Below are positions 23,334-50,171 of a DNA stretch of 64,000 nt, in pieces (positions within the stretch are counted from its first letter, which is position 1; each line of letters begins with the position of its first letter). Source of the stretch: an uncultured Enterobacterales bacterium (GTDB lineage Bacteria > Myxococcota_A > UBA796 > CAJQPC01); the NCBI GenBank assembly GCA_964610645.1, contig CAZSZE010000005.1, forward strand, positions 33,282-97,281. Reading direction: 5' to 3'. The translations under genes and the position numbers were made by a program. Under the pieces are notes generated by a model. That model saw nothing but the letters and a program-made list of their open reading frames with translations. It did not search any database and was not told the origin of the DNA.

Positions 23334-25145
23334 CTAGGCCCCCATCGCGCTGAAGACGGCAAAGGCAATCGCGCCCATGGCCACGGCCATGAGGTACTGG
23401 TCGATGCGGCTTGTTTGTAGACGGCCGGCGGCGGTGGCATTGCGGAGCATGCTCCAGCCCACAGCGTTGATCATTCCATCGACCACGTAGCGGTCGAGCC
23501 ACGCGACCACAGCGGCAAACCCCAACAGCACCTGGCGATAGGCCTGCGCCCAGATCCGATCGACGGGACCTGTCTGGATCCACGCGCCCAGGCGGGACAG
23601 CGATGCGACGGTGCCCCCCTTCCAGGCCCACCACCCGGCCCCCATGCCCAAGAGCGCGAGCCCGAGGCCGAGCCCTCCGAGCGGGGTGAAGTGGAAGTTC
23701 GCGGGGTCACCTACGACCAGCACGTGGAAGACATCCACAAACGCCTTCCCAGCGATGACTGATCCGATGGCCAACACGACCATCGGCACCATCATGGCCA
23801 GGCCGGATTCATGGGGGTGGCCTCCTGGCGTACGGGATTCGCCGGCAAAGATCATCAGCGCCGAACGCCACATGTAGGCGGCGGTCAAGGCCACAGTCAC
23901 GAGGCACAGCCCCAGTGGGACCCACTTGTGCCCGTGGTGCAGTGCCTCAAGCACCAGGTCCTTGGAGTAGAAGCCTGACAGGGGGAAGATCCCGGCCAGG
24001 GCCAGGGCCCCAATGATGTACAGGCCGGCGGTCCAGCGCATGGGACGCGCCAGCCCCCCCATCTCTCGCATGGAGTTGGTTCCCGTGGCGTGAATGACCG
24101 ACCCGGCGCAGAGAAACAGCAGAGCCTTGAAAAAAGCGTGTGTGCCCAGGTGGAAGTACGCCCCCACCATGCCGCCTGCCCCCAGGGCAGCCACCATGTA
24201 CCCCAGCTGGGAACAGGTGGAATAGGCCAGCATCTTCTTCACGTCATCCTGGAGGTACGCGAGGCAAGCAGCTGTAAACGCCGTGATTCCGCCGACCCAG
24301 CAGAGCACCTCCAGCGTGGCCGGGGCCGCCTCGAACAGGGGCCAGCCGCGCACCACCAGGTAGACCCCCGCCGCCACCATCGTGGCTGCGTGGAGCAATG
24401 CCGACACCGGGGTGGGACCTTGCATCGCGTCCGGCAGCCAGATGTGCAGGGGCACCTGGGCGCTCTTTCCCATGACCCCCATGAAGAGCAGCAGGGTCAC
24501 GGCGGTCAGGGTGCGCTCGTCCATCCCGGTCGGGCTCCAGCCAAATCCGCCGCTGGCCGTGGCCAGCACCACCAGGCCCAACAGCAGCCCACCGTCGGCG
24601 AGCTTTGTGACCCAGAAGGCCTTGACTGCGGCCTTCCCGGCCTCGGGCTTGCGCCACCAGAATCCAATCAACAGGTACGAACAGAGCCCCACCAGCTCCC
24701 AACCCATGAAGAGCTGCAGCATGTTGGGCGCCAACACCAGGGCCTGCATCACCACCACGAACAACGCGTGGTAGGCGAAATAGCGGCCCTTGCCCGCGGG
24801 GGATTCCTCGTCCAGGTAGCCCACGGAGTACACCTGGACGCACAGCGCCACCAGCCCCACCACAAACAACATCGGGGCAGCCACGCCGTCCACGAACCAA
24901 CCCACCTCCACCGCGGTCTCGCCGCCGATGGGCATCCAGCGAATGCTCCACTTGGCCACGGGCACCTGGCTGCCCACCTGGAGCTTCATGAGGGCTGCGG
25001 CTGCCACCAGGGACACCGTGCTGGCGCCGCAGACCAGGAAGGCCGGGAGGTGGTCCTTTCGCCGCAGCGGGGGCACCAGCGCAAGCAACAGAAAAGCCGC
25101 CAGAGGGACGCCAAGAAGCAGTGCGCAGAGAGTGTTCGGGCTCAC
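23334..25145 (-). CDS. nuoL: NADH-quinone oxidoreductase subunit L
   Basis: ORF 23334..25472, trimmed to the GTG at 25145 (VSPNTLCALLLGVPL), which overlaps the nuoK stop. About 604 aa, with the typical long C-terminal amphipathic extension. Confidence 0.9.
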   Translation of the reverse strand: MSPNTLCALLLGVPLAAFLLLALVPPLRRKDHLPAFLVCGASTVSLVAAAALMKLQVGSQVPVAKWSIRWMPIGGETAVEVGWFVDGVAAPMLFVVGLVALCVQVYSVGYLDEESPAGKGRYFAYHALFVVVMQALVLAPNMLQLFMGWELVGLCSYLLIGFWWRKPEAGKAAVKAFWVTKLADGGLLLGLVVLATASGGFGWSPTGMDERTLTAVTLLLFMGVMGKSAQVPLHIWLPDAMQGPTPVSALLHAATMVAAGVYLVVRGWPLFEAAPATLEVLCWVGGITAFTAACLAYLQDDVKKMLAYSTCSQLGYMVAALGAGGMVGAYFHLGTHAFFKALLFLCAGSVIHATGTNSMREMGGLARPMRWTAGLYIIGALALAGIFPLSGFYSKDLVLEALHHGHKWVPLGLCLVTVALTAAYMWRSALMIFAGESRTPGGHPHESGLAMMVPMVVLAIGSVIAGKAFVDVFHVLVVGDPANFHFTPLGGLGLGLALLGMGAGWWAWKGGTVASLSRLGAWIQTGPVDRIWAQAYRQVLLGFAAVVAWLDRYVVDGMINAVGWSMLRNATAAGRLQTSRIDQYLMAVAMGAIAFAVFSAMGA

Positions 25146-25444
25146 GTGGCCAGCTCCGTCGCGCGGTCTACCTGGAGGCTTCGGCGGGTTCGGGAGAGCT
25201 GGATCAACAGAGCCAGCCCCACGGCGACCTCCGCCACGGTCAAGGCCATGGCGAAGAGGGCAATCACCTGGCCCGTGAGGTCCCCCCGGGCATAGGCAAA
25301 GGCCACCACGTTCAAGTTCACGGCGTTGAGCATCAACTCCATGGACAAGAGCATCGCGATGGCGTGGCGCCGGGTCAGCAGGCCGTAGAGACCCACCGAA
25401 AAGAGGGCGGCCGACAGCAGGAGCCAGAGTTGCAGGCTGTTCAC
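25142..25444 (-). CDS. nuoK: NADH-quinone oxidoreductase subunit K
   Basis: 100 aa with 3 TM helices: MNSLQLWLLLSAALFSVGLYGLLTRR. Confidence 0.9.
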   Translation of the reverse strand: MNSLQLWLLLSAALFSVGLYGLLTRRHAIAMLLSMELMLNAVNLNVVAFAYARGDLTGQVIALFAMALTVAEVAVGLALLIQLSRTRRSLQVDRATELAT

Positions 25445-25929
25445 GACGGATCGCTCCGGCGGGACAGGACAATGGCGCCGATCATCACGGCCAACAACAG
25501 GACAGACAGGGCCTCAAAGGCAAGCACGTGTCGGGTCAGAAAGAGAGCGCCCAACTCGGCGCTTTCGGAGCCGTTCAACACCCGGGCCTGCTCCGGCAGG
25601 TCCGCGCCAACGATGGCGTATGCAACCGGCGCAAAGAAGGCGAGGGCACACAAAGCACCGCGGAGCTTGCCCACAATCCTCGCGGTCGGTACCCCGTCGT
25701 CCTTCTCCCAGGTGAGCAGCACTGCAAAGAGCATCAAGGTGACGATGCCGCCCGTGTAGAGCAGCACCTGCAAGCCCGCCAGGAGGTCGGCCTGCAGCTG
25801 AAGATAGGCCACCGCTGTCGTGAGCAGGGTCGCTGCCAGCCAGAGCACCGCGCGAATGAGGTCGGTGCTCCGCACCACCTGGACTGCACAGCCCAACATC
25901 AGAAACGCCGTGATCCAAAAGCCGATCAT
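25441..25929 (-). CDS. nuoJ: NADH-quinone oxidoreductase subunit J
   Basis: 162-aa membrane subunit in the conserved operon position. Confidence 0.85.
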   Translation of the reverse strand: MIGFWITAFLMLGCAVQVVRSTDLIRAVLWLAATLLTTAVAYLQLQADLLAGLQVLLYTGGIVTLMLFAVLLTWEKDDGVPTARIVGKLRGALCALAFFAPVAYAIVGADLPEQARVLNGSESAELGALFLTRHVLAFEALSVLLLAVMIGAIVLSRRSDPS

Positions 25930-26474
25930 GGGGCACCTTCCAATGGGGTGGGGGCACCGGAGGGTTTCGGCGGCGGCGGCTCCGGAAGTCCACGCTTGGG
26001 GTTCTGTTCCTCAACCAGCAGGGTGCCCGTGGCCCAGCTGGCCTGGTTCAACGCCTCGTTTGCATAGAGCTTGTCCATGGTGAGGACGAGCCCCTCCCGG
26101 GAGTAGGCCACCTTCTCCGGCACCCGGAGCATGAGAATGGCGTCGGTCGGACACACCTGCACGCACAGCTCGCACACGATGCAGGCGTTCAAATCCAGCG
26201 TGAAGTCATCGCAGTAGCCGCGCTTCTTGCCGGTGACCGGGCTTTCCTTGCGCCCGCCGGCAATCACGGAGATGACGTCCGAGGGGCAGATCTTCTCGCA
26301 CATCTTGCAGCCGATGCAGGCCTCTTCCCCCAGATCGTCGTGGACCAGGGAAAAAGTCGAGCGCATGCGCTCCGATCGCGGGCGATCGCCCTTCCAGGGC
26401 AGGGGTTCCGTGGTCTTGGCCCGGAAGATGTTGCCCAGGGCGATTCCCAGGGTGCGCAGGACGGGGACGACCAT
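25926..26474 (-). CDS. nuoI: NADH-quinone oxidoreductase subunit I (2x[4Fe-4S])
   Basis: Two ferredoxin motifs: CIGCKMCEKICP and CIVCELCVQVCP. Confidence 0.9.
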   Translation of the reverse strand: MVVPVLRTLGIALGNIFRAKTTEPLPWKGDRPRSERMRSTFSLVHDDLGEEACIGCKMCEKICPSDVISVIAGGRKESPVTGKKRGYCDDFTLDLNACIVCELCVQVCPTDAILMLRVPEKVAYSREGLVLTMDKLYANEALNQASWATGTLLVEEQNPKRGLPEPPPPKPSGAPTPLEGAP

Positions 26475-27500
26475 TCAGCCTCCCCAACCCAGGCCGACCC
26501 AGAGGGCAGCCGCTGCAACAAGACACAGGCTGATGGGCAGAAACCAGACCCAGCAGATGCGCAGGAGCTGGTCCTGCCGGTATCGCAGGATGCTCCACCG
26601 CACCCAGAAGATTCCCGCAAAGAGGAACATCGTCTTCGCGACCATCCATTGCGGACCTGCGCCCAGGAATTCTCCGGGCCCAGCCACAAAGGGAGAATCC
26701 GCCCCGCCGAGGAAAATCACGGCTGCGAGGGCCGAAGCGATCAGCGTGTGCAGGTACTCGGCCAGGTAGAACAAGCCGAACTTCATGCCCGTGTACTCGG
26801 TGGTGATCCCGGCCACCAGCTCCGATTCCGCCTCGGGAATGTCAAAGGGAATGCGGTTTGCCTCCGCCAGGGAGCACAGGAAGAACAGCAGGAAGGCAAA
26901 GAAGCCGGGCCCCGGCGGCCACAGCACAAACCAACGCATGCCGTACTGGGCCTCCTGGATCTCCCCCAGGTTGAAACTGCCGGCCAGGATGACCGGCACC
27001 ATTGCGCACAAGAGCAGCGGTATCTCGTAGGAAATGGCCTGGGCTGCGGACCGCATGGCCCCGAGCAGCGCGTACTTGTTGTTGGAGGCCCACCCCGCCA
27101 TCCACACGGGCACCACCAGCAGCGACCCCATGGCCAGCGCAAAGACCAGGCCGATGTCCAGGTCGGCGACCACCCAGGAGCCAAAGGGAATCACCGCCAG
27201 GATGCCCAGCACCAGGATGACCGTCAGCGGCGGCGCCAGGTTGAACAGTGCCTTGTCCGCACTGTCCGGGACGATGTCCTCCTTCTGGAGCATCTTGACG
27301 ATGTCCGCCACGGGCTGGAGCAGGCCAAAGGGGCCGACCTCCGTGGGGCCGGGACGGTTCTGCATGGCACCCGCAAACTTGCGCTCGTACCAGATGGCCC
27401 ACGTGACGGTGATCAGGGCCGCGTTGAGAATCACGAACCCCAGGATCAACGGCGTGGCCGTGTCCAACCAGGTGGAGGAGATTGCGAGGTCCCGCGCCAT
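26475..27500 (-). CDS. nuoH: NADH-quinone oxidoreductase subunit H
   Basis: ORF 26475..27728, trimmed to MARDLAISSTW. The ATG overlaps the nuoD TGA (TGATG). Motifs: WYERKFAGAMQNRPGP. Confidence 0.9.
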   Translation of the reverse strand: MARDLAISSTWLDTATPLILGFVILNAALITVTWAIWYERKFAGAMQNRPGPTEVGPFGLLQPVADIVKMLQKEDIVPDSADKALFNLAPPLTVILVLGILAVIPFGSWVVADLDIGLVFALAMGSLLVVPVWMAGWASNNKYALLGAMRSAAQAISYEIPLLLCAMVPVILAGSFNLGEIQEAQYGMRWFVLWPPGPGFFAFLLFFLCSLAEANRIPFDIPEAESELVAGITTEYTGMKFGLFYLAEYLHTLIASALAAVIFLGGADSPFVAGPGEFLGAGPQWMVAKTMFLFAGIFWVRWSILRYRQDQLLRICWVWFLPISLCLVAAAALWVGLGWGG

Positions 27501-28678
27501 CAGCGGTCGACCTCCCCCAAAATCGGGTCCAGGCTGCCAAGGATCACGATGATGTCCGACAGGTTGTTGCCCGGACACATGTAGGGCAGGAGCGCCAGCG
27601 CGTGAAGACTCGGGGGCCGAATCTTGCAGCGGTAGGGGTTTGGGCTCTTCTTGGTGCCCACGACCCAGGTACCGAGCTCTCCCCGGGGCGACTCGATGGC
27701 CGAATAGATCGTCGCGGTTTCCGGGCACTTGACGGCGCCGGGAAGCTTCACGGGCTTGAGGCCGCAGATGGGCCCCGGGGGGATGTCGTCGATCAGGCAG
27801 CGCACGATGCGAATGGACTCCCGCATCTCGGCGAGTCGCACCTGGTACCGGGCGTAGCAGTCGCCTTCCTCGGCGGTGATCACGTTCACCTCGACCCGGT
27901 CGTAGGCGGCGTAGGGCGCATCGCGCCGAAGGTCATGATCCACGCCGCTCGCCCGCAGGTTTGGCCCGCTGACCCCGAGTTCAATGGCCAACTCCGGGTC
28001 CACCACACCGATCCCACGGGTTCGGGCGATGAAGACCGGGTTCTCCACCAGCATTCCCTCGTACTCGTGGCACCGGGTCTCGATGATGTCCAGCACCTGC
28101 TTGACCCTCTTGTCCCAACCCGCGGGGATGTCGTGGCGCAGCCCCCCCACCGTGTGGTGGTTGTAGTGGAACCGGCAGCCGGTCAGCTCCTCGAAGACAT
28201 CGAGAATCATCTCCCGCTCGCGGAACGTGTGCATGAACGAGGTGGCCCCGCCCCCGAGGGCTCCGCCCATGTCGAGACAGAACGTGCCCAGCCACAAGAG
28301 GTGTGAGGCAATGCGCTGCAGCTCGGCGTTGATGGTGCGCATGACCTGGGCCCGGGGCGGCACCTCGGCCCCCACGAGCTTTTCATAGGCCATGTTGATG
28401 GCCAGCTCATTGGTCATGGGCGCGACGTAGTCGTTCTTGTCGATAATCGGCGTCACCTGCACATAGGTGAGCTTCTCGCAGAGCTTCTCCACCCCCCGGT
28501 GCAGGTAGCCCAGGTACGGAACCGCCTTGATGCAGACCTCGCCATCCAACCACAGCTTCACCCGCAGGACCCCGTGGGTGGAGGGGTGCTGTGGGCCCAG
28601 GTTCAGGACCAGGAGATCGCCCTCCGGATCATGGGAATCCGGATCGAGGTACGGGTCGGCGCGGGGCATCATCTCCAT
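27500..28678 (-). CDS. nuoD: NADH-quinone oxidoreductase subunit D
   Basis: LNLGPQHPSTHGVLR, and the C-terminus ILGEVDR. Confidence 0.95.
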   Translation of the reverse strand: MEMMPRADPYLDPDSHDPEGDLLVLNLGPQHPSTHGVLRVKLWLDGEVCIKAVPYLGYLHRGVEKLCEKLTYVQVTPIIDKNDYVAPMTNELAINMAYEKLVGAEVPPRAQVMRTINAELQRIASHLLWLGTFCLDMGGALGGGATSFMHTFREREMILDVFEELTGCRFHYNHHTVGGLRHDIPAGWDKRVKQVLDIIETRCHEYEGMLVENPVFIARTRGIGVVDPELAIELGVSGPNLRASGVDHDLRRDAPYAAYDRVEVNVITAEEGDCYARYQVRLAEMRESIRIVRCLIDDIPPGPICGLKPVKLPGAVKCPETATIYSAIESPRGELGTWVVGTKKSPNPYRCKIRPPSLHALALLPYMCPGNNLSDIIVILGSLDPILGEVDR

Positions 28679-29142
28679 GGGTGGTGCCGGGTTTCAATGG
28701 CGTAGTCCCTGCGCAGGGGATGGCCGGGCCAGTCCTCGGGCATCATGATGCGCCGCAGATCCGGGTGGCCGGCAAAGACCACGCCCACCAGGTCGTATTG
28801 TTCGCGTTCCTGCCAGTCGGCGCCTGCGAACACCGACACCAAAGAAGGGGTGGTTTCACCGATGGGAACGCGAATCTGGAAACCGATGGTCTCGGTGCCG
28901 GGCCCCAGGCGCCGCAAGCGGTAGGCCACCACAAAGTGTTCGTCCTGGGGGTTTTCCTCGTCCTCCACCGGGAGGTAGTGCGCTGCTGCGCAGTACACAA
29001 AGAAGTTGAACCCGAGCTCATCCTTCAGGGCCCGAGCCAGGGGGACCACGGCTTCCCGGGGCACCCAGGGACCGTTCTCTGGATCGAGTTCCTGGATTCC
29101 GAATCGTTCGGCACAAAGCGCGACAACATCGGAGGGAATCAT
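28669..29142 (-). CDS. nuoC: NADH-quinone oxidoreductase subunit C
   Basis: 157 aa, separate from nuoD, with the 30-kDa subunit pattern EREQYDLVGVVFAGHPDLRRI. Confidence 0.9.
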   Translation of the reverse strand: MIPSDVVALCAERFGIQELDPENGPWVPREAVVPLARALKDELGFNFFVYCAAAHYLPVEDEENPQDEHFVVAYRLRRLGPGTETIGFQIRVPIGETTPSLVSVFAGADWQEREQYDLVGVVFAGHPDLRRIMMPEDWPGHPLRRDYAIETRHHPWR

Positions 29143-29828
29143 TCCTCCTCCCCGAACGCGCCAGCGCGGACTGCTTCGCCGCCGTAGCCCATGTTCACCA
29201 CCCGCCCCAACTGGTCCCGTCCCACAGCGGGATCCCGGTCAGCATCCTGCAACCGGCCGATCTCCGGGCGCTTGAAGCCGTAGAGTTCGGGCCGCAGCTC
29301 TGGTTCGACCCACTCGCCCTTGCGCTGGGCTTCGATCTTCTCCTGCAAGCGGCGAAAGCCGTTCAGGAGTGCATCGGGGTTCGGGGGACAGCCCGGAACA
29401 TACACGTCGACCTGCATAAATGTGTCAACCCCCGGGACCACAGAGTAGATGTCCCGGTAGAAATCCCCGGAAATGGCGCAGGAGCCCATGGCGATGGACC
29501 ACTTGGGCTCGGGCATCTGGTCCCAGAGGCGCTTGACCCGGGGGGCCATCTTGACGGTGATCGTGCCGGCAATGACCATGACATCGCACTGGCGCGGGGT
29601 CCCCCGGGCCACTGTGCCGATGCGGTCCATGTCGAACCGGCTGCAGGCCGCGGCCATGAACTCGATGCCACAACACGAGGTGGCCATGGGAAAGACCCAC
29701 AAGCTGTTGGCGGTGCCCCAGGTGAGCAGCTGGTCGACTCGCCCAAGGGCGATGCTGACGCCCGGCATGTGCTCCACGTGCTGGTAAAGCGGGTGCTCGT
29801 AGGTGCGGCCGGTCTCGTCTACTGCCAT
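29139..29828 (-). CDS. nuoB: NADH-quinone oxidoreductase subunit B
   Basis: ORF 29139..29939, trimmed to MAVDETG. Motifs: SLWVFPMATSCCGIEF, GSCAISGDFY, GCPP. Confidence 0.9.
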   Translation of the reverse strand: MAVDETGRTYEHPLYQHVEHMPGVSIALGRVDQLLTWGTANSLWVFPMATSCCGIEFMAAACSRFDMDRIGTVARGTPRQCDVMVIAGTITVKMAPRVKRLWDQMPEPKWSIAMGSCAISGDFYRDIYSVVPGVDTFMQVDVYVPGCPPNPDALLNGFRRLQEKIEAQRKGEWVEPELRPELYGFKRPEIGRLQDADRDPAVGRDQLGRVVNMGYGGEAVRAGAFGEEE

Positions 29829-30181
29829 TTCAGCGCCCCTTTCCGGAGTGCGTACACCCACCCGAGCAGCAGGATGCCCAGGAAGATCGCCATGTCGATC
29901 AAGGCCAGTCCGCCCAGCTCCTCCAGGTTCAGGGCCCACGGAAGCAGAAACGCTGCCTCCACATCAAAGAGGACAAACAACAGCGCCACCACGTAGTAGC
30001 GGGGATGGAACCGCACCCAGGCCAGTCCATCGGGCTCCTCGCCGCACTCGTAGGTGGACCCTCGAACAGGTTCTACGGGGTTCCGGGCGCGGACCCTGAG
30101 CAGCCATGCACCAAACAGGGATCCAAAGGCGATCGCCGCGGCCAGCGACAGAAAGATCCCGACAACAATCCAGGCAGACAT
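29819..30181 (-). CDS. nuoA: NADH-quinone oxidoreductase subunit A
   Basis: 120 aa with 3 TM helices: YECGEEP..., FLLFDVE-like VLFDVEAAFLLPW. Confidence 0.9.
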   Translation of the reverse strand: MSAWIVVGIFLSLAAAIAFGSLFGAWLLRVRARNPVEPVRGSTYECGEEPDGLAWVRFHPRYYVVALLFVLFDVEAAFLLPWALNLEELGGLALIDMAIFLGILLLGWVYALRKGALKWQ

Positions 30182-30224: not shown

Positions 30225-31691
30225 TCAAGGGCGCTGATAGAGGCGCTGGTCGGGGTTCTCCTGGACCGCTTGGAATCCATCCGCGAGCAACAGGGATTCC
30301 GCCCGTTCAAACCGGGTTCCCAGTCCTCGCCGATGTACGAGCACCTGGTGGATGTGAGGGGGTACGTTCAGCGCTTCAGGCGGCGTCTCTTTCGTCGCGG
30401 GGTCCAGGGCGCGAACCGACCCGAGCCATTCCTCTCCTTGGTTCGTCACGCCCACACTGTTGAAATCCGGCGCCCAGGGACTGGAGGCGCCGTGGACGGT
30501 CTGGCCGTACAGCCACCACCGGGCACGGGGGCGGGAGGGATTTTCCTGCCCCGGGGGAAAGGCGAGGGGCCCAGGGATTTCCAGCAGCACCCCGGGTTCC
30601 ACAGCCTCGTAGATTTCGGGAAGTTCCGCCGGTGCACCGGGAATGACCGGCTCCACGGGAGACAGGAGCAGTCCTTCCAGCGGAATGAGCCAGGGCAGCC
30701 AGCGAATCCATGGGCCCTGCTGTTGGGCCCCCCGGGCCGCCAGAAACGCCAGCACAGCAAGGGTCCCCGCATGGAATCGATAGGGAAACCGCATTTCCGA
30801 CAGGGGCGGCAGGCTGTACCAGGGACCCCAACCGGTGGAAAGGACCCACAAGCCCAGAACCAGCACCGCTGCCCGGCGGTGTTCCCTTGCGGCCACGAGC
30901 GCGAGGAGGGGAGCGGCAAACCCAATCCAGGAGGTCTTGGCAAAGGGCTGCAGTCCGTCGGTGATTCCAGGGGTCCAGCTCCCGATTCCCGTTCCCATGG
31001 CCAGGCGGATTTCATCGGGCAGGGGGGTCCCCCCGGAAAAAGCGCCTGCAAACGCGAGCACTCCCGGCAGAGCGAGCAACACGCCCGGCAGGCTCCACCA
31101 CCCACGCCGTCCCAGGCACACGGCCAGAACGCAGGCCGTGGCCCCGAGGTACCAGCTGCTCCAGAGGCAGATGCCCAGCGCGACCATCGAGAGAACCCGC
31201 TTGCGATCCCCCACCGCCCAGAACCAGGCCGCCAGCGCCCAACCGTCCTGTCCTTCCACCAGCCCCTCCACCGAGTAGCCATGAAAGAACGGGGCTGCCC
31301 CGAAAACCGAAGCCGCCAGAAGCGCTGGCACACCGCGCAGCCCCCAGGCCCGGGCCGCACCAAAGGCACACAGCACCGTCGCCAGCCGAGCCCCCACCGT
31401 GAGCAGGTTCCACGTCTTGGTCAGTCCGAGCATCGGCAACAACGGCCAGGCCAGCCACCCGTGGAGGGGACTGCTGTAGTAGAAGGCCATCCCCCCCGGC
31501 GCAGCCAGGGAGTCACAGTGCGTGGGAAGCCCTGGCTGCTGCCCCGCAAACCAGTGCAGTCCCCAGACCGACGGATACAGGTCCGTCAAGCCATGGCCGA
31601 GGAGCTGTCCCTGGGCCAGGGCGGGCAGGGCCGGCAGGAGCGCCCAGGCACTCGCGAGCAGCGCTGCATGTTTCCAACCGGGTCGATCCAC
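30225..31691 (-). CDS. polytopic membrane protein (glycosyltransferase-C/DUF-type fold suspected), start uncertain
   Basis: ORF 30225..32033. The region upstream of about 31750 is antisense to a better gene. The GTG at 31691 gives (M)DRPGWKHAALLASAWALLPALPALA, followed by about 10 TM segments and a soluble C-terminal domain. Confidence 0.55.
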   Translation of the reverse strand: MDRPGWKHAALLASAWALLPALPALAQGQLLGHGLTDLYPSVWGLHWFAGQQPGLPTHCDSLAAPGGMAFYYSSPLHGWLAWPLLPMLGLTKTWNLLTVGARLATVLCAFGAARAWGLRGVPALLAASVFGAAPFFHGYSVEGLVEGQDGWALAAWFWAVGDRKRVLSMVALGICLWSSWYLGATACVLAVCLGRRGWWSLPGVLLALPGVLAFAGAFSGGTPLPDEIRLAMGTGIGSWTPGITDGLQPFAKTSWIGFAAPLLALVAAREHRRAAVLVLGLWVLSTGWGPWYSLPPLSEMRFPYRFHAGTLAVLAFLAARGAQQQGPWIRWLPWLIPLEGLLLSPVEPVIPGAPAELPEIYEAVEPGVLLEIPGPLAFPPGQENPSRPRARWWLYGQTVHGASSPWAPDFNSVGVTNQGEEWLGSVRALDPATKETPPEALNVPPHIHQVLVHRRGLGTRFERAESLLLADGFQAVQENPDQRLYQRP

Positions 31692-31749
31692 GGGTGCAGT
31701 GTAATCGGGGCGGGATACGAGCCAGGGAGAACCGGCTGGAGGTTGGAAC

Positions 31750-32292
31750 ATGTGGTGGTTGTTGTTGGCATGCGGGGATGCGGAGCGGGTGGCGGCGTTG
31801 GAGGTGGAGTTGGCCGAGGCCCGCGCCACGATTTCGGGCCTGGAAGAGGACCTGGAGCAGCGCAAGCGGCGCACGGCCTCCCTGGAGCGCCTCGATGCGG
31901 CGATGGAGTCGGCCCACACCCGGGTGGAAGCCCGCTGCACCGGTCCCTTGCCGGGAGCGACCGGCGTGTCCCAGTCCTTCCGGATCACCTCAACAGGAGC
32001 AGATGAACTCCTCGGGGACCTGGATGCCGTCATCAGTCAGGGAAAGTGGATCCCCCATGGATCCGTGGAAGAACCCTCCGGCTGGCGCCTCGTGCGCACC
32101 GCCCGGGGCAGCCTGCTCGCAAGTTGTGGCCTGCGGCCAGCCGATGTGCTGGTCGAGATCAACGGGGTGGATGTGCGGAGCGCCGAGAACGTGGCGGAGG
32201 CGGTGGAGGACGTGGTGGAGTCACGGTCCCTGGAGCTGAAGGTCTTGCGAAACCGGGAGCCGCTGGTTCTGTCGGTGACAGAAGGGCCCTAG
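31750..32292 (+). CDS. lipoprotein with coiled coil and a C-terminal PDZ domain
   Basis: MWWLLLACGD has a lipobox. Then a helical segment, then a PDZ-like region: GWRLVRTARGSLLASCGLRPADVLVEINGVDVRSAENV...LKVLRNREPLVLSV. Confidence 0.6.
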   Translation: MWWLLLACGDAERVAALEVELAEARATISGLEEDLEQRKRRTASLERLDAAMESAHTRVEARCTGPLPGATGVSQSFRITSTGADELLGDLDAVISQGKWIPHGSVEEPSGWRLVRTARGSLLASCGLRPADVLVEINGVDVRSAENVAEAVEDVVESRSLELKVLRNREPLVLSVTEGP

Positions 32293-32352: not shown

Positions 32353-34905
32353 CTACAGCCTGGTGATGGTCACGTAGCCGTCTCCTGAGGTGCCGCTGCC
32401 GCCGGTGCTGGTACTCGGGTTGGAGCCGGAGTTGAAGGAGCCGCCGCCGCCGCCGCCATCACAGTAATTTCCACCCCCGCCGCCGGAGTAACCGCCGCCG
32501 CCCCCGCCGTAGACGTCGTGGTAGGTCCCGCCGCCTCCACCAAATCCCCCTGCACCGGCATTGCTTCCGCAGGTGGCTGCACAGTTGCCCCCGGTGGCGC
32601 CGTTCAGGAAACTCAATCCACCCGAGGCATCGCCGGGGGCATCCCCTCCGTCGCCGCTCAAGCCGCCGCCTCCTCCACCATAGCTGCCTCCACAGGAGTC
32701 GCCGCCGCTGCCTCCGCTGCCTCCACTGCAGGAGCTGGAGACGCCGCTGGTCGAGTCGGTCGCGTCCTGGGTGGACCGGTGTTGATCTCCTCGGCATGGG
32801 GCACCGCCGCCTCCTGCAATGATGAGGGGAGTGTCATCGGAGGCGACCACGAAGGAACCTCCGCCGGCACCGGCATGGGCGTTGACCGTCTGTCCCACTT
32901 GTCCCACCAGGATCTGAAGAATGTCCCCCTGGGTCAGGGTGAGATCCCCGTTGATGATGGCACCCCGTCCGGGGTAGCTGGTGTAGCTGGTGTTGCTTCC
33001 CGAGCCAGCGCCTGCGACTACCACTGTGTAGGTCCCGTCTTCAGGGACCGTCCATCTCTGGATGCCCTGAGTGGACATGTCCAAGTAGGACTGGTCTTCG
33101 TCCCAGACGGTGCTGTAGGCGCCTCGACAGTCCGACAGCGTTGGGCCATTGCGCCCGCTGGCGCCACAGGCCGAAAAGGTGTGGGCCGAGAAATCGTAGA
33201 GGCTGCAGCCCGTGTTGATGCTGGCATCTGTGTCGTCACAGTCCGTGCCGGTGATGATGTGCTCTTCGCTGTCAAAGCCATCCCCATCCGCGTCGTAGTC
33301 CGAGGCACCGTCGCAGTCTGAGTCGTCGCCGTCATACCAGGTTTCCGTAGCGGCCGGGCTGATCGCGCTGTTCCCATCATCGCAGTCGGTCCCGTCGACC
33401 AGGTACCCGCTGGGCTGGTTGCAGACGCTGACACTGGTACTGGCATCGCCGTAGCCATCCCCATCGTCGTCCAAATAGAAGGTGTTCAGGCCCGTGGCCC
33501 CGGTGTCGTTGTCATCGGCCAGGCCGTTGCAGTCCTCGTCGGTGTCCGAGGCATCACAGACCTCGGCGGTCGACGGGTTTACCCCTGCATCCAGGTCGTT
33601 GCAGTCGTCGCTGGACGCCACAAAACCGGTGGATGCGTTGCAGGCGGTCTCGGTCAGGGTCGTGGAGCCGTGCCCATCGCCATCCAGATCCACGTACCAG
33701 GTGGTGGCGTCGCTAGCGTCGGCGCCGTCGACGGTCCCATTGCAGTCGTCGTCCACCCCGTTGCAGGTTTCGGTGCCCGAGGGGCTGATGGCGGCATCGC
33801 CGTCGTTACAGTCGGTGGCATCCGACACGTGGCCGGAAGGCATGTCGCAGGAATCCACGGAAGATGCGGCATCCCCGAATCCATCGGAGTCGGTATCGGC
33901 GTACCAGGTACCCTCTCCGAGCGAGCCGGCCTCGTCGACGGACCCGTTGCAGTCGTTGTCCACTCCGTCGCAGACCTCCACGCCGCCCGGGTGCACACCG
34001 GAGGCGGTGTCGTTGCAGTCGTCCCCGTTGGCGCTGTAGCCTGGGGGTGCATCGCACGCGGTGGTCACCGAGCTGGCGTCTCCGTAGCCATCCCCGTCAG
34101 CGTCGGCGTACCAGGAGAAGCCCACCCCTTCGTCGATGGCGGTGTCGCAGTCGTTGTCCTTCTCGTCGCAGATCTCCGCGGCACCGGGGTAGGAGAGGGG
34201 TTCCAGGTCGTCGCAGTCGTCGGAGTTGTCGACGTAGCCGCCAGGGACCTCGCAGGCGTCGGTGGTGAACTGGCTGCCTCCGAACCCATCGGAGTCGGCG
34301 TCCGCGTACCAGGTCGGGGCTCCGGAGAGCAGAGGATCCTCGTCGTCGATCAGGCCGTCGCAGTTGTCGTCGATGGCGTTGCAGGTCTCGGTCGCATCGG
34401 GGTTCACCGCCGCGTCGGAGTCGTTGCATTCGGCGCAGGCGGCGTATCCGTCCCCGTCGACATCGGCGTAGCCCACCGAGCCATCGCAGTTGTAGTCCAT
34501 TGGGTCCTCGCAGTCGGACTCGATGGCGGTGGGGTTGAACAGGGCGCTGGTATCGTCGCAGTCCAGCTCGTTGGTGACGTAGCCGGTGGGGGCATCGCAG
34601 GACCACAGGGACTCGTCCGGGTTGCCGAATCCATCTGAGTCGGCGTCCGCGAAGTACAGGACATCGTCCACGGGGTCGTCGTCTATGAGCAGGTTGCAGT
34701 CGTTGTCCACCCCGTCGCAGACCTCGGCGGCGCCCGGGAAGACCGTGGGGTCGTTGTCGTCGCAGTCGTCGGTGTAGCCGTCGCCGTCCGCATCTCCGCT
34801 GGAGGCGCCGCTGTCATCGGACAAGTCGTCGGTGTCGGGTGCGTCCTTGGAGCCGTCACAGCCGACGAGGAGCAGAAGGAGCAGATGGATCAGGACGGTA
34901 CGCAC
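32353..34905 (-). CDS. large lipoprotein: about 11 MopE-type Cys-rich 'putative metal-binding' repeats plus a C-terminal ALK/LTK-like glycine-rich domain
   Basis: MRTVLIHLLLLLLVGCDG has a lipobox. Repeats take the form DADGDGYG...C..P.GYV....DC(D/N)D.D..V.PGA.E.CDG.DNDC.G..D. The last ~280 aa are FSACGASGRNGPTLSDC..AY, WTVPEDGTYTVVVAGAG, GDILQILVGQVG, GAGGGSFVV, PLIIAGGGGA, GGFGGGGG, GGGGGGYSGGGGG. Confidence 0.8.
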   Translation of the reverse strand: MRTVLIHLLLLLLVGCDGSKDAPDTDDLSDDSGASSGDADGDGYTDDCDDNDPTVFPGAAEVCDGVDNDCNLLIDDDPVDDVLYFADADSDGFGNPDESLWSCDAPTGYVTNELDCDDTSALFNPTAIESDCEDPMDYNCDGSVGYADVDGDGYAACAECNDSDAAVNPDATETCNAIDDNCDGLIDDEDPLLSGAPTWYADADSDGFGGSQFTTDACEVPGGYVDNSDDCDDLEPLSYPGAAEICDEKDNDCDTAIDEGVGFSWYADADGDGYGDASSVTTACDAPPGYSANGDDCNDTASGVHPGGVEVCDGVDNDCNGSVDEAGSLGEGTWYADTDSDGFGDAASSVDSCDMPSGHVSDATDCNDGDAAISPSGTETCNGVDDDCNGTVDGADASDATTWYVDLDGDGHGSTTLTETACNASTGFVASSDDCNDLDAGVNPSTAEVCDASDTDEDCNGLADDNDTGATGLNTFYLDDDGDGYGDASTSVSVCNQPSGYLVDGTDCDDGNSAISPAATETWYDGDDSDCDGASDYDADGDGFDSEEHIITGTDCDDTDASINTGCSLYDFSAHTFSACGASGRNGPTLSDCRGAYSTVWDEDQSYLDMSTQGIQRWTVPEDGTYTVVVAGAGSGSNTSYTSYPGRGAIINGDLTLTQGDILQILVGQVGQTVNAHAGAGGGSFVVASDDTPLIIAGGGGAPCRGDQHRSTQDATDSTSGVSSSCSGGSGGSGGDSCGGSYGGGGGGLSGDGGDAPGDASGGLSFLNGATGGNCAATCGSNAGAGGFGGGGGTYHDVYGGGGGGYSGGGGGNYCDGGGGGGSFNSGSNPSTSTGGSGTSGDGYVTITRL

Positions 34906-35042
34906 GGTGCCTCCAGGATGGAGGCCTATTGTATGCTACGAAACTGCCCTGCAGGCTGGTGTGGATCACGTAGCCACATCGAACCTCAGGTAGGATGGGT
35001 ACCGGAGCGAGGCGCAAGGCACGTCGCCTCAGGAGAGATTCC

Positions 35043-37334
35043 ATGCGGTTTGCACTTTTTGCGCTCGGGCTGCTGGTCTCGTGTCGCAGCAGCAATGTCA
35101 TCAAGAAAGGGGACACCCTGGACACCGACGGTTTGGTCGATACCGGTCTGATCGACACGCACGTGGAACCGGTGGATGCGGACGAGGACGGGTTTGCTGC
35201 CGACGAGGACTGCGACGATACCGACGCGGCGGTGAACCCCGATGCGACCGAGACCTGTGATGGCATCGACAACGACTGCGACGGCCTTATCGACGACGAC
35301 GATCCAGGGGTGGGCGGCAGGGCGACGTGGTACGCGGATGCGGACGGCGACGGGTACGGCAACGCGGGGTTCTCCACCGAGGCTTGCGAGGCGCCGGTGG
35401 GCCACGTGGCCGATTCAGGGGACTGCGATGATGGCGACGCGGCCTTTCACCCGGGCGCCGACGAGTCGGACTGCACCGACCCCGCCGACTACAACTGCGA
35501 TGGCTCGGTAGGCCATGCCGATGTGGACGGGGATGGCTTTGCCGCCTGCGAGGACTGCGACGACACCGTCGCCACCACCAGCCCCCTGGGCACCGAGGTG
35601 TGCGATGGAGTCGACAACGACTGCGACGGGGACACGGATGAAGACGACGCGGCCGATGCGGCCACCTGGTACGGGGATGCGGATGGGGATGGTTTTGGCG
35701 ATGGGTCCAGTCCCGTCAGCGCCTGCGAGGCCCCCTCGGGCCACGTGGACGATGACACGGACTGCGACGACTCCCTCTCGGCGGTGAACCCGGACGGTGT
35801 GGAGTCTTGCAACGGGGTGGACGACAACTGCGATGGCGCCGTGGACGAGGGGGTGCTCCCCACCTGGTACGGCGATTCCGACGGGGACGGATACGGGGGG
35901 ACCACGTTTTCCGCCGAGTCCTGCAGCGTCCCCAGCGGCTACGTGGACAACGCCGACGACTGCGATGACCTGGAGTCCTCTGTGTTTCCCGGGGCCACCG
36001 AGGTCTGCAACGGGGTGGACGACAACTGCGACGGGTCGGTGGACACCGCAGCCGTGGATGCCACCACCTGGCACATCGACTACGATGGCGACGGATACGG
36101 CAGCCAGAGCGCCGCGTTTGATGTCACCGCCTGCAATGCACCCGGCGGCTACGTGTCCGATGCCACCGACTGCGACGACGCCGACGCCACCAGCCATCCC
36201 GGCGGAACCGAGGTGTGCGACTTGGCGGACAATGACTGCAACGGCTCCGTGGACGAGGGGGTGGGCACCACCTGGTACGCCGATGCCGACTCCGACGGCC
36301 ACGGCGACGGTGCCAGTCCCACCGTCGCCTGCAGCCCCCCCACCGGGCACGTGGCCAATGCAGATGATTGCGATGACACCGATGCCACCGCCCATCCCGG
36401 CGGAACCGAGATCTGCGACGGCGTGGACAACAACTGCCTGAATGGCGTGGACGAGGGGGTGAGCACGCCCTACTACGCGGACGGCGACAGCGACGGCTAC
36501 GGCGATGTCACCAACCCCATCAACGCTTGCAGCCAACCCTCGGGGTATGTCTCCGACGCCACCGATTGCGATGACACCGACTCCACGAGCTACCCCGGCG
36601 CCACGGAGCAATGCGATGGCATAGACCACGACTGCGATGGAAGCCCGGCCGCCACCAACGGCCAGAGCCCTGCCTGCGCGGGCACTACCTGTCAATCCAT
36701 CCTTGCCGCGGACGTCAGCGCCGCCGATGGCACGTACTACCTGGACCCGGCGGCCGATGGAACCATTATCGAGGCCTACTGCGAGATGACCTTCGACGGG
36801 GGTGGCTGGTTGGCGGTCTACAACCTCACCGCCCAGGCGGAGGACAACTCCGGCGCCGCCATCATGTGGAACTCGATCAACAACCGGGCGGACATGACCC
36901 AGGCAGTGCTACCCGACTCGGACAGTGCGTCCATCTACACGTCGAACCTGCCCCTGGCCAGCTACACCGAGGTGGTCTACGGCTGGGCCCCCACCACCAC
37001 TGACGACGTGTCCCGGTACGGCACCTACTCCAACTCCTCCGGCCTGGCCTCGGAGTGCTACCTGGGATTGCTGTGCGGCAACGGGTCGAATCTAGCCACC
37101 ATGACCGTCGTGCCCACGGGCACGGTGCAGGTGTTCCAGACCGGCAACAGCCCCGGCTACCCCCACGTGGGCATCGGCTGGTCGGGGCAGATCATCGTCT
37201 GGGGCTACGACAACAACGCCTCCTCCTACAGCCACTGGGCCAACTGGTACGACACAAAGTCCTGCTGCACCTCCGGCAACACCTCTGAGATGTCCGGCAA
37301 CACCTCCTGGCACTACGTCATCTACATCCGATGA
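35043..37334 (+). CDS. large lipoprotein: about 10 MopE-type Cys-rich repeats plus a C-terminal fibrinogen-related-like globular domain
   Basis: ORF 34995..37334, trimmed to MRFALFALGLLVSC (lipobox). It uses the same repeat type as the divergent neighbour. C-terminal domain: CAGTTCQSILAADVSAADGTYYLDPAADGTIIEAYCEMTFDGGGWLAVYN. Confidence 0.8.
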   Translation: MRFALFALGLLVSCRSSNVIKKGDTLDTDGLVDTGLIDTHVEPVDADEDGFAADEDCDDTDAAVNPDATETCDGIDNDCDGLIDDDDPGVGGRATWYADADGDGYGNAGFSTEACEAPVGHVADSGDCDDGDAAFHPGADESDCTDPADYNCDGSVGHADVDGDGFAACEDCDDTVATTSPLGTEVCDGVDNDCDGDTDEDDAADAATWYGDADGDGFGDGSSPVSACEAPSGHVDDDTDCDDSLSAVNPDGVESCNGVDDNCDGAVDEGVLPTWYGDSDGDGYGGTTFSAESCSVPSGYVDNADDCDDLESSVFPGATEVCNGVDDNCDGSVDTAAVDATTWHIDYDGDGYGSQSAAFDVTACNAPGGYVSDATDCDDADATSHPGGTEVCDLADNDCNGSVDEGVGTTWYADADSDGHGDGASPTVACSPPTGHVANADDCDDTDATAHPGGTEICDGVDNNCLNGVDEGVSTPYYADGDSDGYGDVTNPINACSQPSGYVSDATDCDDTDSTSYPGATEQCDGIDHDCDGSPAATNGQSPACAGTTCQSILAADVSAADGTYYLDPAADGTIIEAYCEMTFDGGGWLAVYNLTAQAEDNSGAAIMWNSINNRADMTQAVLPDSDSASIYTSNLPLASYTEVVYGWAPTTTDDVSRYGTYSNSSGLASECYLGLLCGNGSNLATMTVVPTGTVQVFQTGNSPGYPHVGIGWSGQIIVWGYDNNASSYSHWANWYDTKSCCTSGNTSEMSGNTSWHYVIYIR

Positions 37335-44645: not shown

Positions 44646-46574
<1,929 letters not shown>

Positions 46575-46653
46575 CGGAAACCTCTTGCGGTGGAAGGAGA
46601 GGACTGCGGCTACAGGGTAGGACGGGTGCAACGGGAGATCCGTTACAACGGCA

Positions 46654-47724
46654 TCACCAGCTACCCAGCGGGCCTCCCATGGCGCCAAGGTCGGCGCGGC
46701 TTCCATCAGCATCCTGGAGATCGGGCGGGCCAGCATCTACCGCGGGGCTGCCCGCGCGAAGCCTGAAGTCCTCGCCGGCGGCGTCTTCGAAGCCGGGATC
46801 AGCGTAGAGAAGGCCCTCCCCCTCGGGCCAGGCAGTGCCGGCCGAGGCACTGGCCCAGGAAACCTGCGGCCACAGCAGGTTGTACTCGTTCTCAAAGGTG
46901 TAGCCCCGCGCCTCCATGAACCGAAAGGCCCACGGGCTCCCCTGCGGAACGACAATGAGGTTCCCTCTCAGGTTTCCCTGGGGTTCGTAGAACCACTCGC
47001 CGGCGGGACCATCCTGTGAGGTGTTCAAGTACAAGGTGTTGAAGACGACTTCCCCCTTGCAGTTGGTGCAGACGACTCCGCCCCCCCCGTCGTCCGCATG
47101 GTTGAAGGCAATGATGTTGTTGGTCACGGTGGCATAGCCATGGCGCATGTACACGCCCCCAGCGATGCGGGCGCTGTTGTTCACGATGATGTTGTGGCGA
47201 ATGATCGGGTCAGCATTCTCCACGAAGATGCCGCCTCCGTGGCCCTCTGTTCCCCATCCGTTTTGAAGGGTGAAGCCCTCCAAGACCGCGGTAGAGGGCT
47301 CCTGGGCCCGCATGCTCACCACGGAACCCTCACCCTCTCCATCGAGAATGGTCTGGGCGGCACCCGCCATGGAACGCACGGTGATTCCCTTGCCGTGAAA
47401 GTCGATCCTCTCCAGGTGCAGGCCGGGCGCCACAAGCACTGTGTCTCCGTCGCCCGCTTGCTCGATGGCTTCCTGGATGGTGGAGAAGAAGAGGCCCTTG
47501 TTCTCCAGGTGGGCGACGGCCTCTCCCCAGCCGGTGTCTCCGGTCTCTGTCGCGGAGTCATCCGGGGAGGCGCCGGAGTCCGTGTCTGTAACGGGGAGGG
47601 CGGTGTCATCGTCGCTGTCCGTGTCCCCCACACGCGGGAAGTGAAGCAGGGGCCCGCCAAAGGTCATTGGTTTGCAAGCCGTACAACAGAACAACAGAGG
47701 CAGTGACAGGAAGTGCAAGCGCAT
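46654..47724 (-). CDS. right-handed parallel beta-helix repeat lipoprotein
   Basis: Trimmed to MRLHFLSLPLLFCCTAC (lipobox). Motifs: DGDTVLVAPGLHLERIDFHGKGITV, GGGIFVENADPIIRHNIIVNNSA, GGGVVC. Confidence 0.7.
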   Translation of the reverse strand: MRLHFLSLPLLFCCTACKPMTFGGPLLHFPRVGDTDSDDDTALPVTDTDSGASPDDSATETGDTGWGEAVAHLENKGLFFSTIQEAIEQAGDGDTVLVAPGLHLERIDFHGKGITVRSMAGAAQTILDGEGEGSVVSMRAQEPSTAVLEGFTLQNGWGTEGHGGGIFVENADPIIRHNIIVNNSARIAGGVYMRHGYATVTNNIIAFNHADDGGGGVVCTNCKGEVVFNTLYLNTSQDGPAGEWFYEPQGNLRGNLIVVPQGSPWAFRFMEARGYTFENEYNLLWPQVSWASASAGTAWPEGEGLLYADPGFEDAAGEDFRLRAGSPAVDAGPPDLQDADGSRADLGAMGGPLGSW

Positions 47725-49124: not shown

Positions 49125-50171
49125 TCATGCAAGGGCTCCCCCGCAGCTGGATCCGCTGCCTGCTGTGCAGCCCAAGCAGTGCCCATCGGTTGAAATTGGG
49201 GCGTCCAAGAGGGCGTCGAGGCTCTCCAGGTCAAAAAGCGTGGCTTGCTTCTGGCTGCCTCCGCCCAGGTCCATTTCCAACATCTGGTTGAAGTCACAGT
49301 CATGGAGCACGCCATCCCAACCCACGCTCACGGTGCTCTTGCACATGAGCCCGGGCAAGGTGGCCGGATTGAAGTTGTCCTCCAACAGGTCCAAGTAGCC
49401 GCCGAGTTCCCCCCGCCGGGCAAGGTGGGTCGCAAAACGCTGGACCGGAAGGTTCGTGAGGGTGAGCAAGCGACTGAACCGAAGGCCATGGTTCTCCCAC
49501 AGCTCGGCGCGGTACTGCTGCTCCAGGGCGGATTGGGCCGGGGGAAGGAACGCGCCACCCGGATTGTAGACGAGGTCCAACACCAGGTTCGAGTCCTCCT
49601 GCCCATAACCAAGCGAGTTGAGGCGCCTGATGGCTTGAATGCTCTTGGCGAACACGCCGCTTCCGCGCTGCGAGTCCACGTTCTCCTCTCCATAGCAGGG
49701 AAGGCTGGCCGTGATTCGCACCTGGTTGCGGGCCAGAAAGTCCGGCAGATCCTCCATCCCGGGCTCAAAAAGGACGGTCAGGTTGCACCGGTCAATGACT
49801 GCACGTCCAAGCGCACGTGTTCCCTCCACCAGGGATCGAAAATTGGGATTCAACTCCGGCGCCCCCCCGGTGAGGTCCGCCACCTCCACGGACGGCGAGG
49901 CCGCGAGGAGTGCGAGGACACGATCCGCCACGCGCCGATCCATCTGTTCGGTTCTTGTGGGGCCCGCCTCCACGTGGCAGTGGGTACACGCCTGGTTGCA
50001 CAACTTCCCAAGGTTGACCTGGAGCGTGGTCACCGGCGTGCGGCGAAGAGGAGCAAGACCGCGAGCGCGAAGCACTCCGTCAAAGTCCCTGAGGGAGACC
50101 TCTGCATGGGCCGCTCGGGCTCTCACAGCGTTGACCGTCACCGCTCCGTCTTCTCCCATTCGTCCTCCCAT
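49125..50171 (-). CDS. radical SAM/Cys-rich-domain protein of the ArsS family (Cys variant)
   Basis: CX3CX2C motif in NLGKLCNQACTHCHVEAGP. The C-terminal tail HCLGCTAGSGSSCGGALA matches the family in which some members carry Sec at the SS[C/U]G position. Confidence 0.75.
   Translation of the reverse strand: MGGRMGEDGAVTVNAVRARAAHAEVSLRDFDGVLRARGLAPLRRTPVTTLQVNLGKLCNQACTHCHVEAGPTRTEQMDRRVADRVLALLAASPSVEVADLTGGAPELNPNFRSLVEGTRALGRAVIDRCNLTVLFEPGMEDLPDFLARNQVRITASLPCYGEENVDSQRGSGVFAKSIQAIRRLNSLGYGQEDSNLVLDLVYNPGGAFLPPAQSALEQQYRAELWENHGLRFSRLLTLTNLPVQRFATHLARRGELGGYLDLLEDNFNPATLPGLMCKSTVSVGWDGVLHDCDFNQMLEMDLGGGSQKQATLFDLESLDALLDAPISTDGHCLGCTAGSGSSCGGALA

Follow-up and report, generated by a model that had tools for sequence, protein, structure and literature searches.

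The ligand-binding domain of the animal receptors ALK and LTK, which joins a TNF-like and a glycine-rich part (the TG domain) and is a target of drugs and antibodies, was reportedly described in 2021 as an unusual architecture. In human ALK, a hexagonal lattice of 14 polyglycine-II helices is found; the structures of that year are said to show that the ALKAL cytokines bind mainly to the TNF-like face and to the EGF-like domain, with the polyglycine lattice acting as the scaffold. Here we report on a gene located in a stretch of 64,000 nucleotides (the window, to which all positions refer; positions 33,282 to 97,281 of contig CAZSZE010000005.1, assembly GCA_964610645.1) from an uncultured bacterium deposited as Enterobacterales and placed by GTDB in Myxococcota_A. 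The gene encodes an 850-amino-acid protein composed of a lipoprotein signal, a Cys-rich stalk of MopE-type repeats and a C-terminal head of 283 residues. On the data presented below, the true homology of this head with the TG domain of ALK/LTK is close to certain.

In terms of function, the best analogy for a scaffold that carries variable loops is provided by phage host-recognition proteins. Specifically, the tail fibre gp24 of cyanophage Pam3 (7ypx) unites a TNF-like with a glycine-rich domain for host recognition, and its authors saw a likeness to C. elegans ALK (PMC9608196), while the gp38 adhesin of Salmonella phage S16 (6F45) carries a comparable glycine-rich domain with a beta-helix instead of the TNF-like domain (10.1101/2023.11.25.568672). 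In both proteins the glycine-rich part is a conserved stem, from which variable distal loops recognise the host (PMC9608196; 10.1101/2023.11.25.568672). The protein studied here differs from these phage proteins, which are trimeric, chaperone-dependent fibres with an N-terminal helical shaft and a smaller lattice of 10-12 segments. A second comparison comes from the same phylum: the Cys-rich repeats of Myxococcus TraA have been proposed to form a stalk displaying a recognition domain (PMC6372800). The design logic of the two proteins is alike, in that a recognition head is placed on a stalk of Cys-rich repeats at the cell surface, but they have no related parts. In TraA the head is N-terminal and PA14-like, the Cys-rich repeats are of another kind and the anchor is MYXO-CTERM, whereas the 850-residue protein has an N-terminal lipid and a C-terminal head.

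The head corresponds to residues 568-850 and maps exactly to positions 32356-33204, followed by the stop codon at 32353-32355. A phmmer search with these last 283 residues against all PDB sequences recovered human ALK (E 5e-14), LTK (E 1.4e-11) and, from C. elegans, SCD-2 (E 1.4e-5), the sole further row being CASC3 at chance level (E 0.097). The strongest ALK stretch covers head residues 3-106 (47.7 bits, E 1.4e-11 when taken alone) and is not glycine-rich. In addition, the Pfam model PF12810 (ALK_LTK_GRD) matched residues 622-833 along profile positions 6-209 of 243 with a score of 28.3 bits, above the curated gathering score of 24.5 that was taken as the criterion. When 54 relatives, bacterial and metagenomic, were combined into a profile, it matched ALK with an E-value of 4e-47, in two stretches spanning the entire TG domain.

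The alignments agree with a sequence-only reading of this DNA, which had proposed that the last ~280 residues follow the glycine-rich region of ALK/LTK, and all the motif pairs that it listed were found in the HMMER alignment. Specifically, FSACGASGRNGPTLSDCRGAY pairs with a 21-residue string of human ALK, which that reading had paired correctly and quoted slightly wrongly, and GIQRWTVPEDGTYTVVVAGAG pairs with a 23-residue string. GDILQILVGQ of the head aligns with DDMLYILVGQ of ALK, PLIIAGGGG with PLIIAAGGG and GGGGGGYSGG with GGGGGGYIGG; GGFGGGGG is common to both proteins, and the last strand in the profile alignment reads GHGEVNI in ALK and GDGYVTI in the head. Considering the HMMER and the profile alignments together, every Gly-rich block of the head aligns to an ALK block, and every such block of ALK to one of the head. 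The head and ALK share the order of motifs from F-T-x-C-G-A-x-G-x-x-G-P-T through G-x-G-x-V-x-I, and over the structural alignment the identity between the head and ALK-type domains is ~26-30%.

The predicted structure led to the same assignment. AlphaFold2, supplied with an alignment of relatives, returned a head model with a predicted local distance difference test score (pLDDT) of 94.3 and a predicted template-modelling score of 0.93. Searching the PDB with this model through Foldseek gave 21 top matches, all of them ectodomains of ALK, LTK or SCD-2, with E-values from 3e-16 to 2e-8 and template-modelling (TM) scores of 0.57-0.77; the TNF, GITRL and C1q folds appeared only further down the list, at an E-value of about 1. 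The next match after the receptors was the Pam3 fibre 7ypx (E 5e-3, TM 0.28), and the head is preceded by a MopE stalk and not by a helical shaft. The protein is not of the gp24 type, and the analogy with it is functional only. The sequence-only reading had named as evidence against itself the lack of an HMM match together with the lack of a TNF-like/glycine-rich fold; PF12810 exceeded its gathering score, and the fold obtained by modelling is that of the receptors.

According to the model, the N- and C-terminal strands of the head make up a TNF-like beta-sandwich, which braces an inserted glycine-rich lattice; the construction of the sandwich around a glycine-rich insert is common to the head and ALK/LTK, and the head is homologous over its full length to the TG supradomain of ALK, LTK and SCD-2 (PDB 7nx3, 7n00, 7nx1, 7lir; PF12810), with the same fold (TM 0.72-0.77). 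In the N-terminal half, DSSP assigned strands at domain residues 7-10, 41-64, 83-99 and 117-130 (pLDDT 86-99), and this half also holds the conserved Cys580/Cys593 pair. Throughout the family, no variation is seen in the columns F10, P21, G47, W51, P54, Y59 and G101. Domain residues 131-260 form a core that was modelled at pLDDT 87-98 and in which hardly any helix or strand was assigned; we take it for a putative polyglycine-II lattice, for which this pattern and the alignment of the Gly-rich blocks with those of ALK are indirect support. The C-terminal strands, at 261-266 and 277-282, align to ALK ...GHGEVNIKHY, directly before the ALK EGF-like domain. Across the family, the Gly runs and the sandwich strands are kept, whereas the connectors (domain residues ~136-160, 183-195, 205-217 and 245-250) are variable and contain insertions and deletions.

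A likeness of merely compositional nature, in which Gly low complexity would mimic ALK and the C-terminus would be a disordered Gly/Ser tail, has to be weighed against these results. The head does consist of 28% Gly and 13% Ser, and the second HMMER stretch, in the Gly-rich half, showed high bias and an E-value of 1.4 when taken alone. The low-complexity objection is nevertheless removed, because the top ALK stretch is not glycine-rich; the family profile matches ALK far beyond that stretch, the model keeps its confidence over the whole length, no segment falling below pLDDT 50, and the structures that it matches are specifically those of ALK, LTK and SCD-2. Refuted by the phmmer stretch, the AlphaFold2 model, the Foldseek matches and the family profile alike, this explanation retains a probability close to nil.

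The likeness to the animal receptors ends with the domain. The head stops at the last sandwich strand (ITRL, followed by the stop codon), whereas the ALK alignment continues into LNCSHCEVDEC, for which the 850-residue protein has no counterpart; Pfam detected neither a kinase nor an EGF domain in the protein, and an insertion of ~34 residues, which in ALK follows ILVGQQGED, is missing from the head. Anchoring differs as well, ALK and LTK being type I receptors and the bacterial protein being held by an N-terminal lipid via the MopE stalk. The homology is therefore limited to the ligand-binding domain of ALK; as EGF-like, transmembrane and kinase parts are all missing, the gene product is no ALK-like receptor. 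As to the ligand, the sequence-only reading had stated that in animals this domain binds cytokines through polyglycine-II helices; it is indeed a ligand-binding domain, but the wording "through helices" is imprecise in the light of the 2021 structures. The ALKAL (AUG) ligands are vertebrate proteins and are not found outside vertebrates (10.1101/795468), and the ligand of the bacterial head must therefore be a different one.

The N-terminus of the protein, MRTVLIHLLLLLLVGC, reads directly, by eye, as a lipoprotein signal with the sequence LLVGC, in which LVGC forms the lipobox (satisfying [LVI][ASTVI][GAS]C) and Cys16 is the putative lipidation site. The mature protein would begin with CDGSKDA, and an envelope or surface location is predicted. 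The signal is followed by a stalk in which each repeat consists of a DxDxDG[YFH] loop alternating with a MopE-type C[DN]Dx[DN]...P...C.G.DNDC motif. Pfam PF11617 (Cu-binding_MopE, a motif of about 30 residues) matched the protein in eight stretches with an E-value of 1.9e-65, and we counted nine DxDxDG motifs, about nine MopE-type Cys motifs (by hand) and 32 Cys residues. Asp makes up 22% of the first 566 residues. A lipoprotein with a MopE-like stalk had also been recognised by the sequence-only reading, though its figure of ~11 repeats was slightly too high by any of these counts. The stalk is acidic and disulfide-rich, and it is probably stabilised by calcium, which it is predicted to bind. 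The MopE protein of M. capsulatus (2vov) was matched only weakly (E 0.005), along chain residues 5-42, which comprise the N-terminal motif and leave the copper-binding part unmatched.

We consider the gene to be real and conserved, because an identical 850-residue product is present in a public NCBI-derived protein collection and a 99% identical copy, called as a gene of the same length and flanked by the same genes, is found on three metagenome contigs. In a metagenome-assembled genome (MAG) of Myxococcota we found an orthologue of 683 amino acids, in another genomic context, which keeps the order lipobox-MopE-TG with two repeat units fewer and has LLLALSC as its lipobox region. Among the proteins examined, the combination of a lipoprotein signal with a MopE stalk, like the pairing with a lectin-head neighbour, is confined to the 850-residue protein, its near-identical copies and this orthologue. 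Among species-representative genomes, which do not include that of the window, the closest TG-bearing locus is 64% identical, and the source organism, probably a myxobacterium, is therefore assigned as Myxococcota-like only.

Upstream of the gene, and in divergent orientation, lies a second, paralogue-like MopE-stalk lipoprotein gene; these two are the only MopE-repeat open reading frames (ORFs) in the window, and the same pair recurs on the three metagenome contigs. Pfam detected eight MopE repeats in the neighbour, whose C-terminal head (~36570-37331, motif YCEMTFDGGGW) is intelectin/fibrinogen-like: it matched the NCBIfam model NF040941 (GGGWT_bact) with an E-value of 2e-14 and intelectin-1 by phmmer with 1.6e-4. 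Its AlphaFold2 model was of moderate confidence (pLDDT 66), and the top Foldseek matches were all intelectin, XEEL or fibrinogen-related domains. This head resembles bacterial fibrinogen-like GGGWT proteins (NF040941), intelectins and X-type lectins, and its fold is unlike that of the TG head; the locus thus has two heads of "animal type". Homologues of the neighbour head are rare, with 17 matches only. The two genes look as if binding heads had been exchanged on a single stalk design, and such a pair suggests that Myxococcota-like bacteria have a modular system of display.

The TG head belongs to the prokaryotic and viral proteins known as "glycine-rich domain-containing" (PF12810), a family whose members are already catalogued, together with the domain itself, by Pfam and UniProt; it does not represent a new kind of system. 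A word-indexed search returned at least 1,312 matches at E<=1e-3, most of them 300-450 amino acids long and 36-56% identical. An exhaustive profile search of 1.84 billion representatives, each standing for a cluster at 50% identity, returned 14,959 proteins at E<=1e-3, of which 9,077 reach E<=1e-10 and 4,586 reach E<=1e-30, so that ~15,000 clusters match the family profile. Giant proteins of 1,000-7,800 residues, with 2-10 tandem TG copies, are numerous among the relatives. TG loci occur in Myxococcota, Bacteroidota, Alpha- and Gammaproteobacteria, Actinobacteria and Planctomycetota, and also in Spirochaetota, Verrucomicrobiota, Zixibacteria and several archaeal groups.

Viruses are represented by 69 matches in BFVD at E<=1e-3, phages and giant viruses included, some of which are automatically named "receptor protein-tyrosine kinase" or "glycine-rich domain-containing protein". 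One such case is a protein of ~2,850 residues from Actinomycetia phage DSL-LC01 (OQ999401.1, 108221-116782), which is named "ALK tyrosine kinase receptor" and adjoins collagen-like genes; this is probably a fibre or host-recognition protein, with the ALK name carried over from the domain. A tblastn search of phages gave four matches only, low-complexity filtering being the probable cause.

In the relatives, the TG domain is joined to Flp-pilin and type IV pilin N-termini, a type IX secretion system (T9SS) sorting tail, Listeria-Bacteroides repeats, fn3 and EGF_CA, all of which are modules typical of secreted or displayed proteins. Several TG proteins of one Alphaproteobacteria MAG begin with a Flp/Fap pilin domain, and one relative carries a type IV pilin N-methylation motif, which suggests that TG heads are carried on pilus subunits. 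Calcium-binding EGF domains were observed in one further relative, and pentapeptide repeats in another.

Annotation covers this family incompletely. At E<=1e-3, PF12810 detects only 28 of the 54 close relatives; on the head studied here it matches from domain residue 55 onwards and leaves the first 54 residues, which contain the N-terminal TNF-like strands, uncovered; NCBIfam has no model for the TG protein. Because PF12810 misses about half of the close relatives, many family members are unannotated. Our literature searches found no description of cellular bacterial ALK-type domains or of an origin by horizontal transfer, the Pam3 fibre paper excepted, which is not a proof of absence.

Taking these data together, we think it fairly probable that, in the 850-residue protein, a stalk anchored in the envelope displays a rigid recognition head of ALK type, whose ligand is other than ALKAL. 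According to this hypothesis, the signal peptide would be cleaved and Cys16 lipidated, anchoring the protein in the cell envelope, and the long stalk of ~9 MopE-type repeats would hold out the C-terminal head. The head would have a binding role as a rigid recognition module, for which the conserved Gly runs and the sandwich strands would act as scaffold, and the variable, indel-rich, Cys-containing connectors would supply the specificity together with the sandwich surface. Its partner would probably be a surface molecule of another cell or a component of the matrix, and not an ALKAL cytokine. Extracytoplasmic display is favoured because of the lipobox, of the pilin and T9SS modules in the relatives and of the numerous viral relatives; a function of the stalk as a display scaffold is favoured because the same stalk bears a lectin-like head in the neighbour.

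Three other functions were weighed against this one. The protein could mainly handle copper or calcium in the envelope, with the TG domain as nothing but a structural cap, as the eight MopE motifs, the nine DxDxDG loops, the high content of Asp and the weak match to M. capsulatus MopE might indicate. That match, however, is limited to the N-terminal motif, with the copper site outside it, the stalk carries a lectin-like head in the neighbour, as befits a display scaffold, and thousands of proteins that lack MopE repeats have a TG head, conserved independently of them; we consider a metal-handling function quite unlikely. It is unlikely, too, that the TG head binds no foreign ligand and rather self-associates or builds a matrix, be it as a trimer like TNF and the phage fibres, a surface layer or a fibril. 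[quoted passage not shown] The Pam3 trimer, however, is held mainly by an N-terminal helical bundle that is missing in the 850-residue protein. The TG domains of ALK and LTK are not known to trimerise via their TNF-like part.

Finally, polyglycine-II bundles are the ice-binding fold of arthropod antifreeze proteins (10.1101/2023.11.25.568672), and flat polyglycine-II faces of the head could bind ice or a mineral surface in the manner of the snow-flea proteins. The ALK-type lattice is, however, a multilayer honeycomb braced by a beta-sandwich and not a two-layer flat sheet, the conserved columns show no regular Thr/Ala ice-binding face, and the family is spread over very diverse habitats and hosts. 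We regard such an activity as very improbable.

Some observations weigh against the display of a ligand-binding head on the outside of the cell. To our knowledge, neither a ligand nor a localisation nor a phenotype has been assigned to any family member from cellular bacteria. In the profile alignment, M-E-G-H-G-E-V-N-I of ALK is paired with S-G-D-G-Y-V-T-I of the head, and E974 and E978, which we take to be contacts of the ALKAL ligand, are replaced by Ser and Tyr, respectively; nothing about ALKAL binding therefore carries over to the bacterial protein. In addition, the residue at position +2 after the lipidated Cys is Asp, a signal for retention in the inner membrane in E. coli. The protein could thus face the periplasm and not the outside, although the sorting rules may differ in a Myxococcota-like lineage. 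In M. xanthus lipoproteins, Lys at +2 marks the inner membrane and Ala at +7 the matrix; Ala is present at +7 in the 850-residue protein, but not in its orthologue. The genomic context, which comprises the nuo operon, a PDZ protein, an LPG-synthase-like gene and a gamma-glutamyltranspeptidase, is silent on function.

Table 1. Features of the locus, in window coordinates; domain residues are counted from the first residue of the TG head.
Feature	Position	Strand	Length	Description
Complex I (nuo) gene block	23334-30181	-		further nuo genes besides nuoA-D
nuoL-like	23334-25472	-
nuoH-like	26475-27728	-
nuoD	27500-28678	-
nuoC	28669-29142	-
nuoB	29139-29939	-
nuoA	29819-30181	-
ORF between nuoA and the PDZ gene	30225-32033	-	602 amino acids	no Pfam match; looks like a polytopic membrane protein
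Small PDZ protein	31750-32292	+	180 amino acids	convergent with the TG gene; lipobox-like LLLACG, coiled-coil-like stretch, PDZ
MopE-stalk/TG-head lipoprotein, coding sequence	32353-34905	-	850 amino acids + stop	start GTG; from the ORF list
TG head, C-terminal strands	32356-32424	-	domain residues 261-283	...GDGYVTITRL; rejoin the TNF-like sandwich (model); end of the protein
TG head, glycine-rich core	32425-32814	-	domain residues 131-260	Gly runs GGFGGGGG, GGGGGGYSGGGGG, GGGGGGSF and variable Cys-containing connectors
TG head, N-terminal half	32815-33204	-	domain residues 1-130	TNF-like beta-strands, one helix, first Gly-rich segments interleaved (model)
Stalk	33205-34794	-	residues 38-567	~9 composite repeats; Pfam PF11617 and motif/Cys counts
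Signal peptide with lipobox	34858-34905	-		MRTVLIHLLLLLLVG+C, read from the translation; Cys16 lipidated (predicted)
Divergent intergenic region	34906-34994	.	89 base pairs	between the two MopE-stalk genes
Neighbour MopE-stalk lipoprotein	34995-37334	+	779 amino acids from first ATG	likely start Met17 (35043); lipobox LVSC

The positions of the features are collected in Table 1. No match to a sigma-70-like promoter was found in the region between the two stalk genes, and the scan of the locus for promoters and terminators was uninformative. The PDZ domain of the 180-residue protein resembles that of GspC, with scores below the curated cut-offs, and no type II secretion genes were found among the neighbouring genes. 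In the absence of other informative neighbours as well, a link of the locus to a secretion system was rejected. The adjacency of the PDZ gene and the TG gene is kept on one of the three metagenome contigs. Elsewhere in the window, the AT skew changes sign near 20 kb, where the minus-strand nuo block begins; a radical-SAM/DUF3641 protein (49125-50171, minus strand) adjoins a multihaem cytochrome of the c554/MtrC type (50208-51605, minus strand), and an LVIVD-repeat protein is encoded at 44973-46736.

As a broader proposal, which we consider doubtful, the animal ALK/LTK module would have its ancestry in a very large family of recognition heads displayed by prokaryotes and viruses, and this locus would show the ancestral use: interchangeable heads of animal type (TG, intelectin/fibrinogen) on a common Cys-rich stalk for modular surface recognition, the TG head binding a specific protein or glycan partner on other cells. 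In any case, the finding raises the testable question of the origin of the animal domain. The compact bacterial versions are predicted to fold into the same unit of TNF-like sandwich and glycine lattice without the ALK insertion or the EGF-like domain, and such heads are simple model proteins for the folding and binding of polyglycine-II lattices. The microbial family is very large and under-annotated, and the assignment of even one ligand would already be informative.

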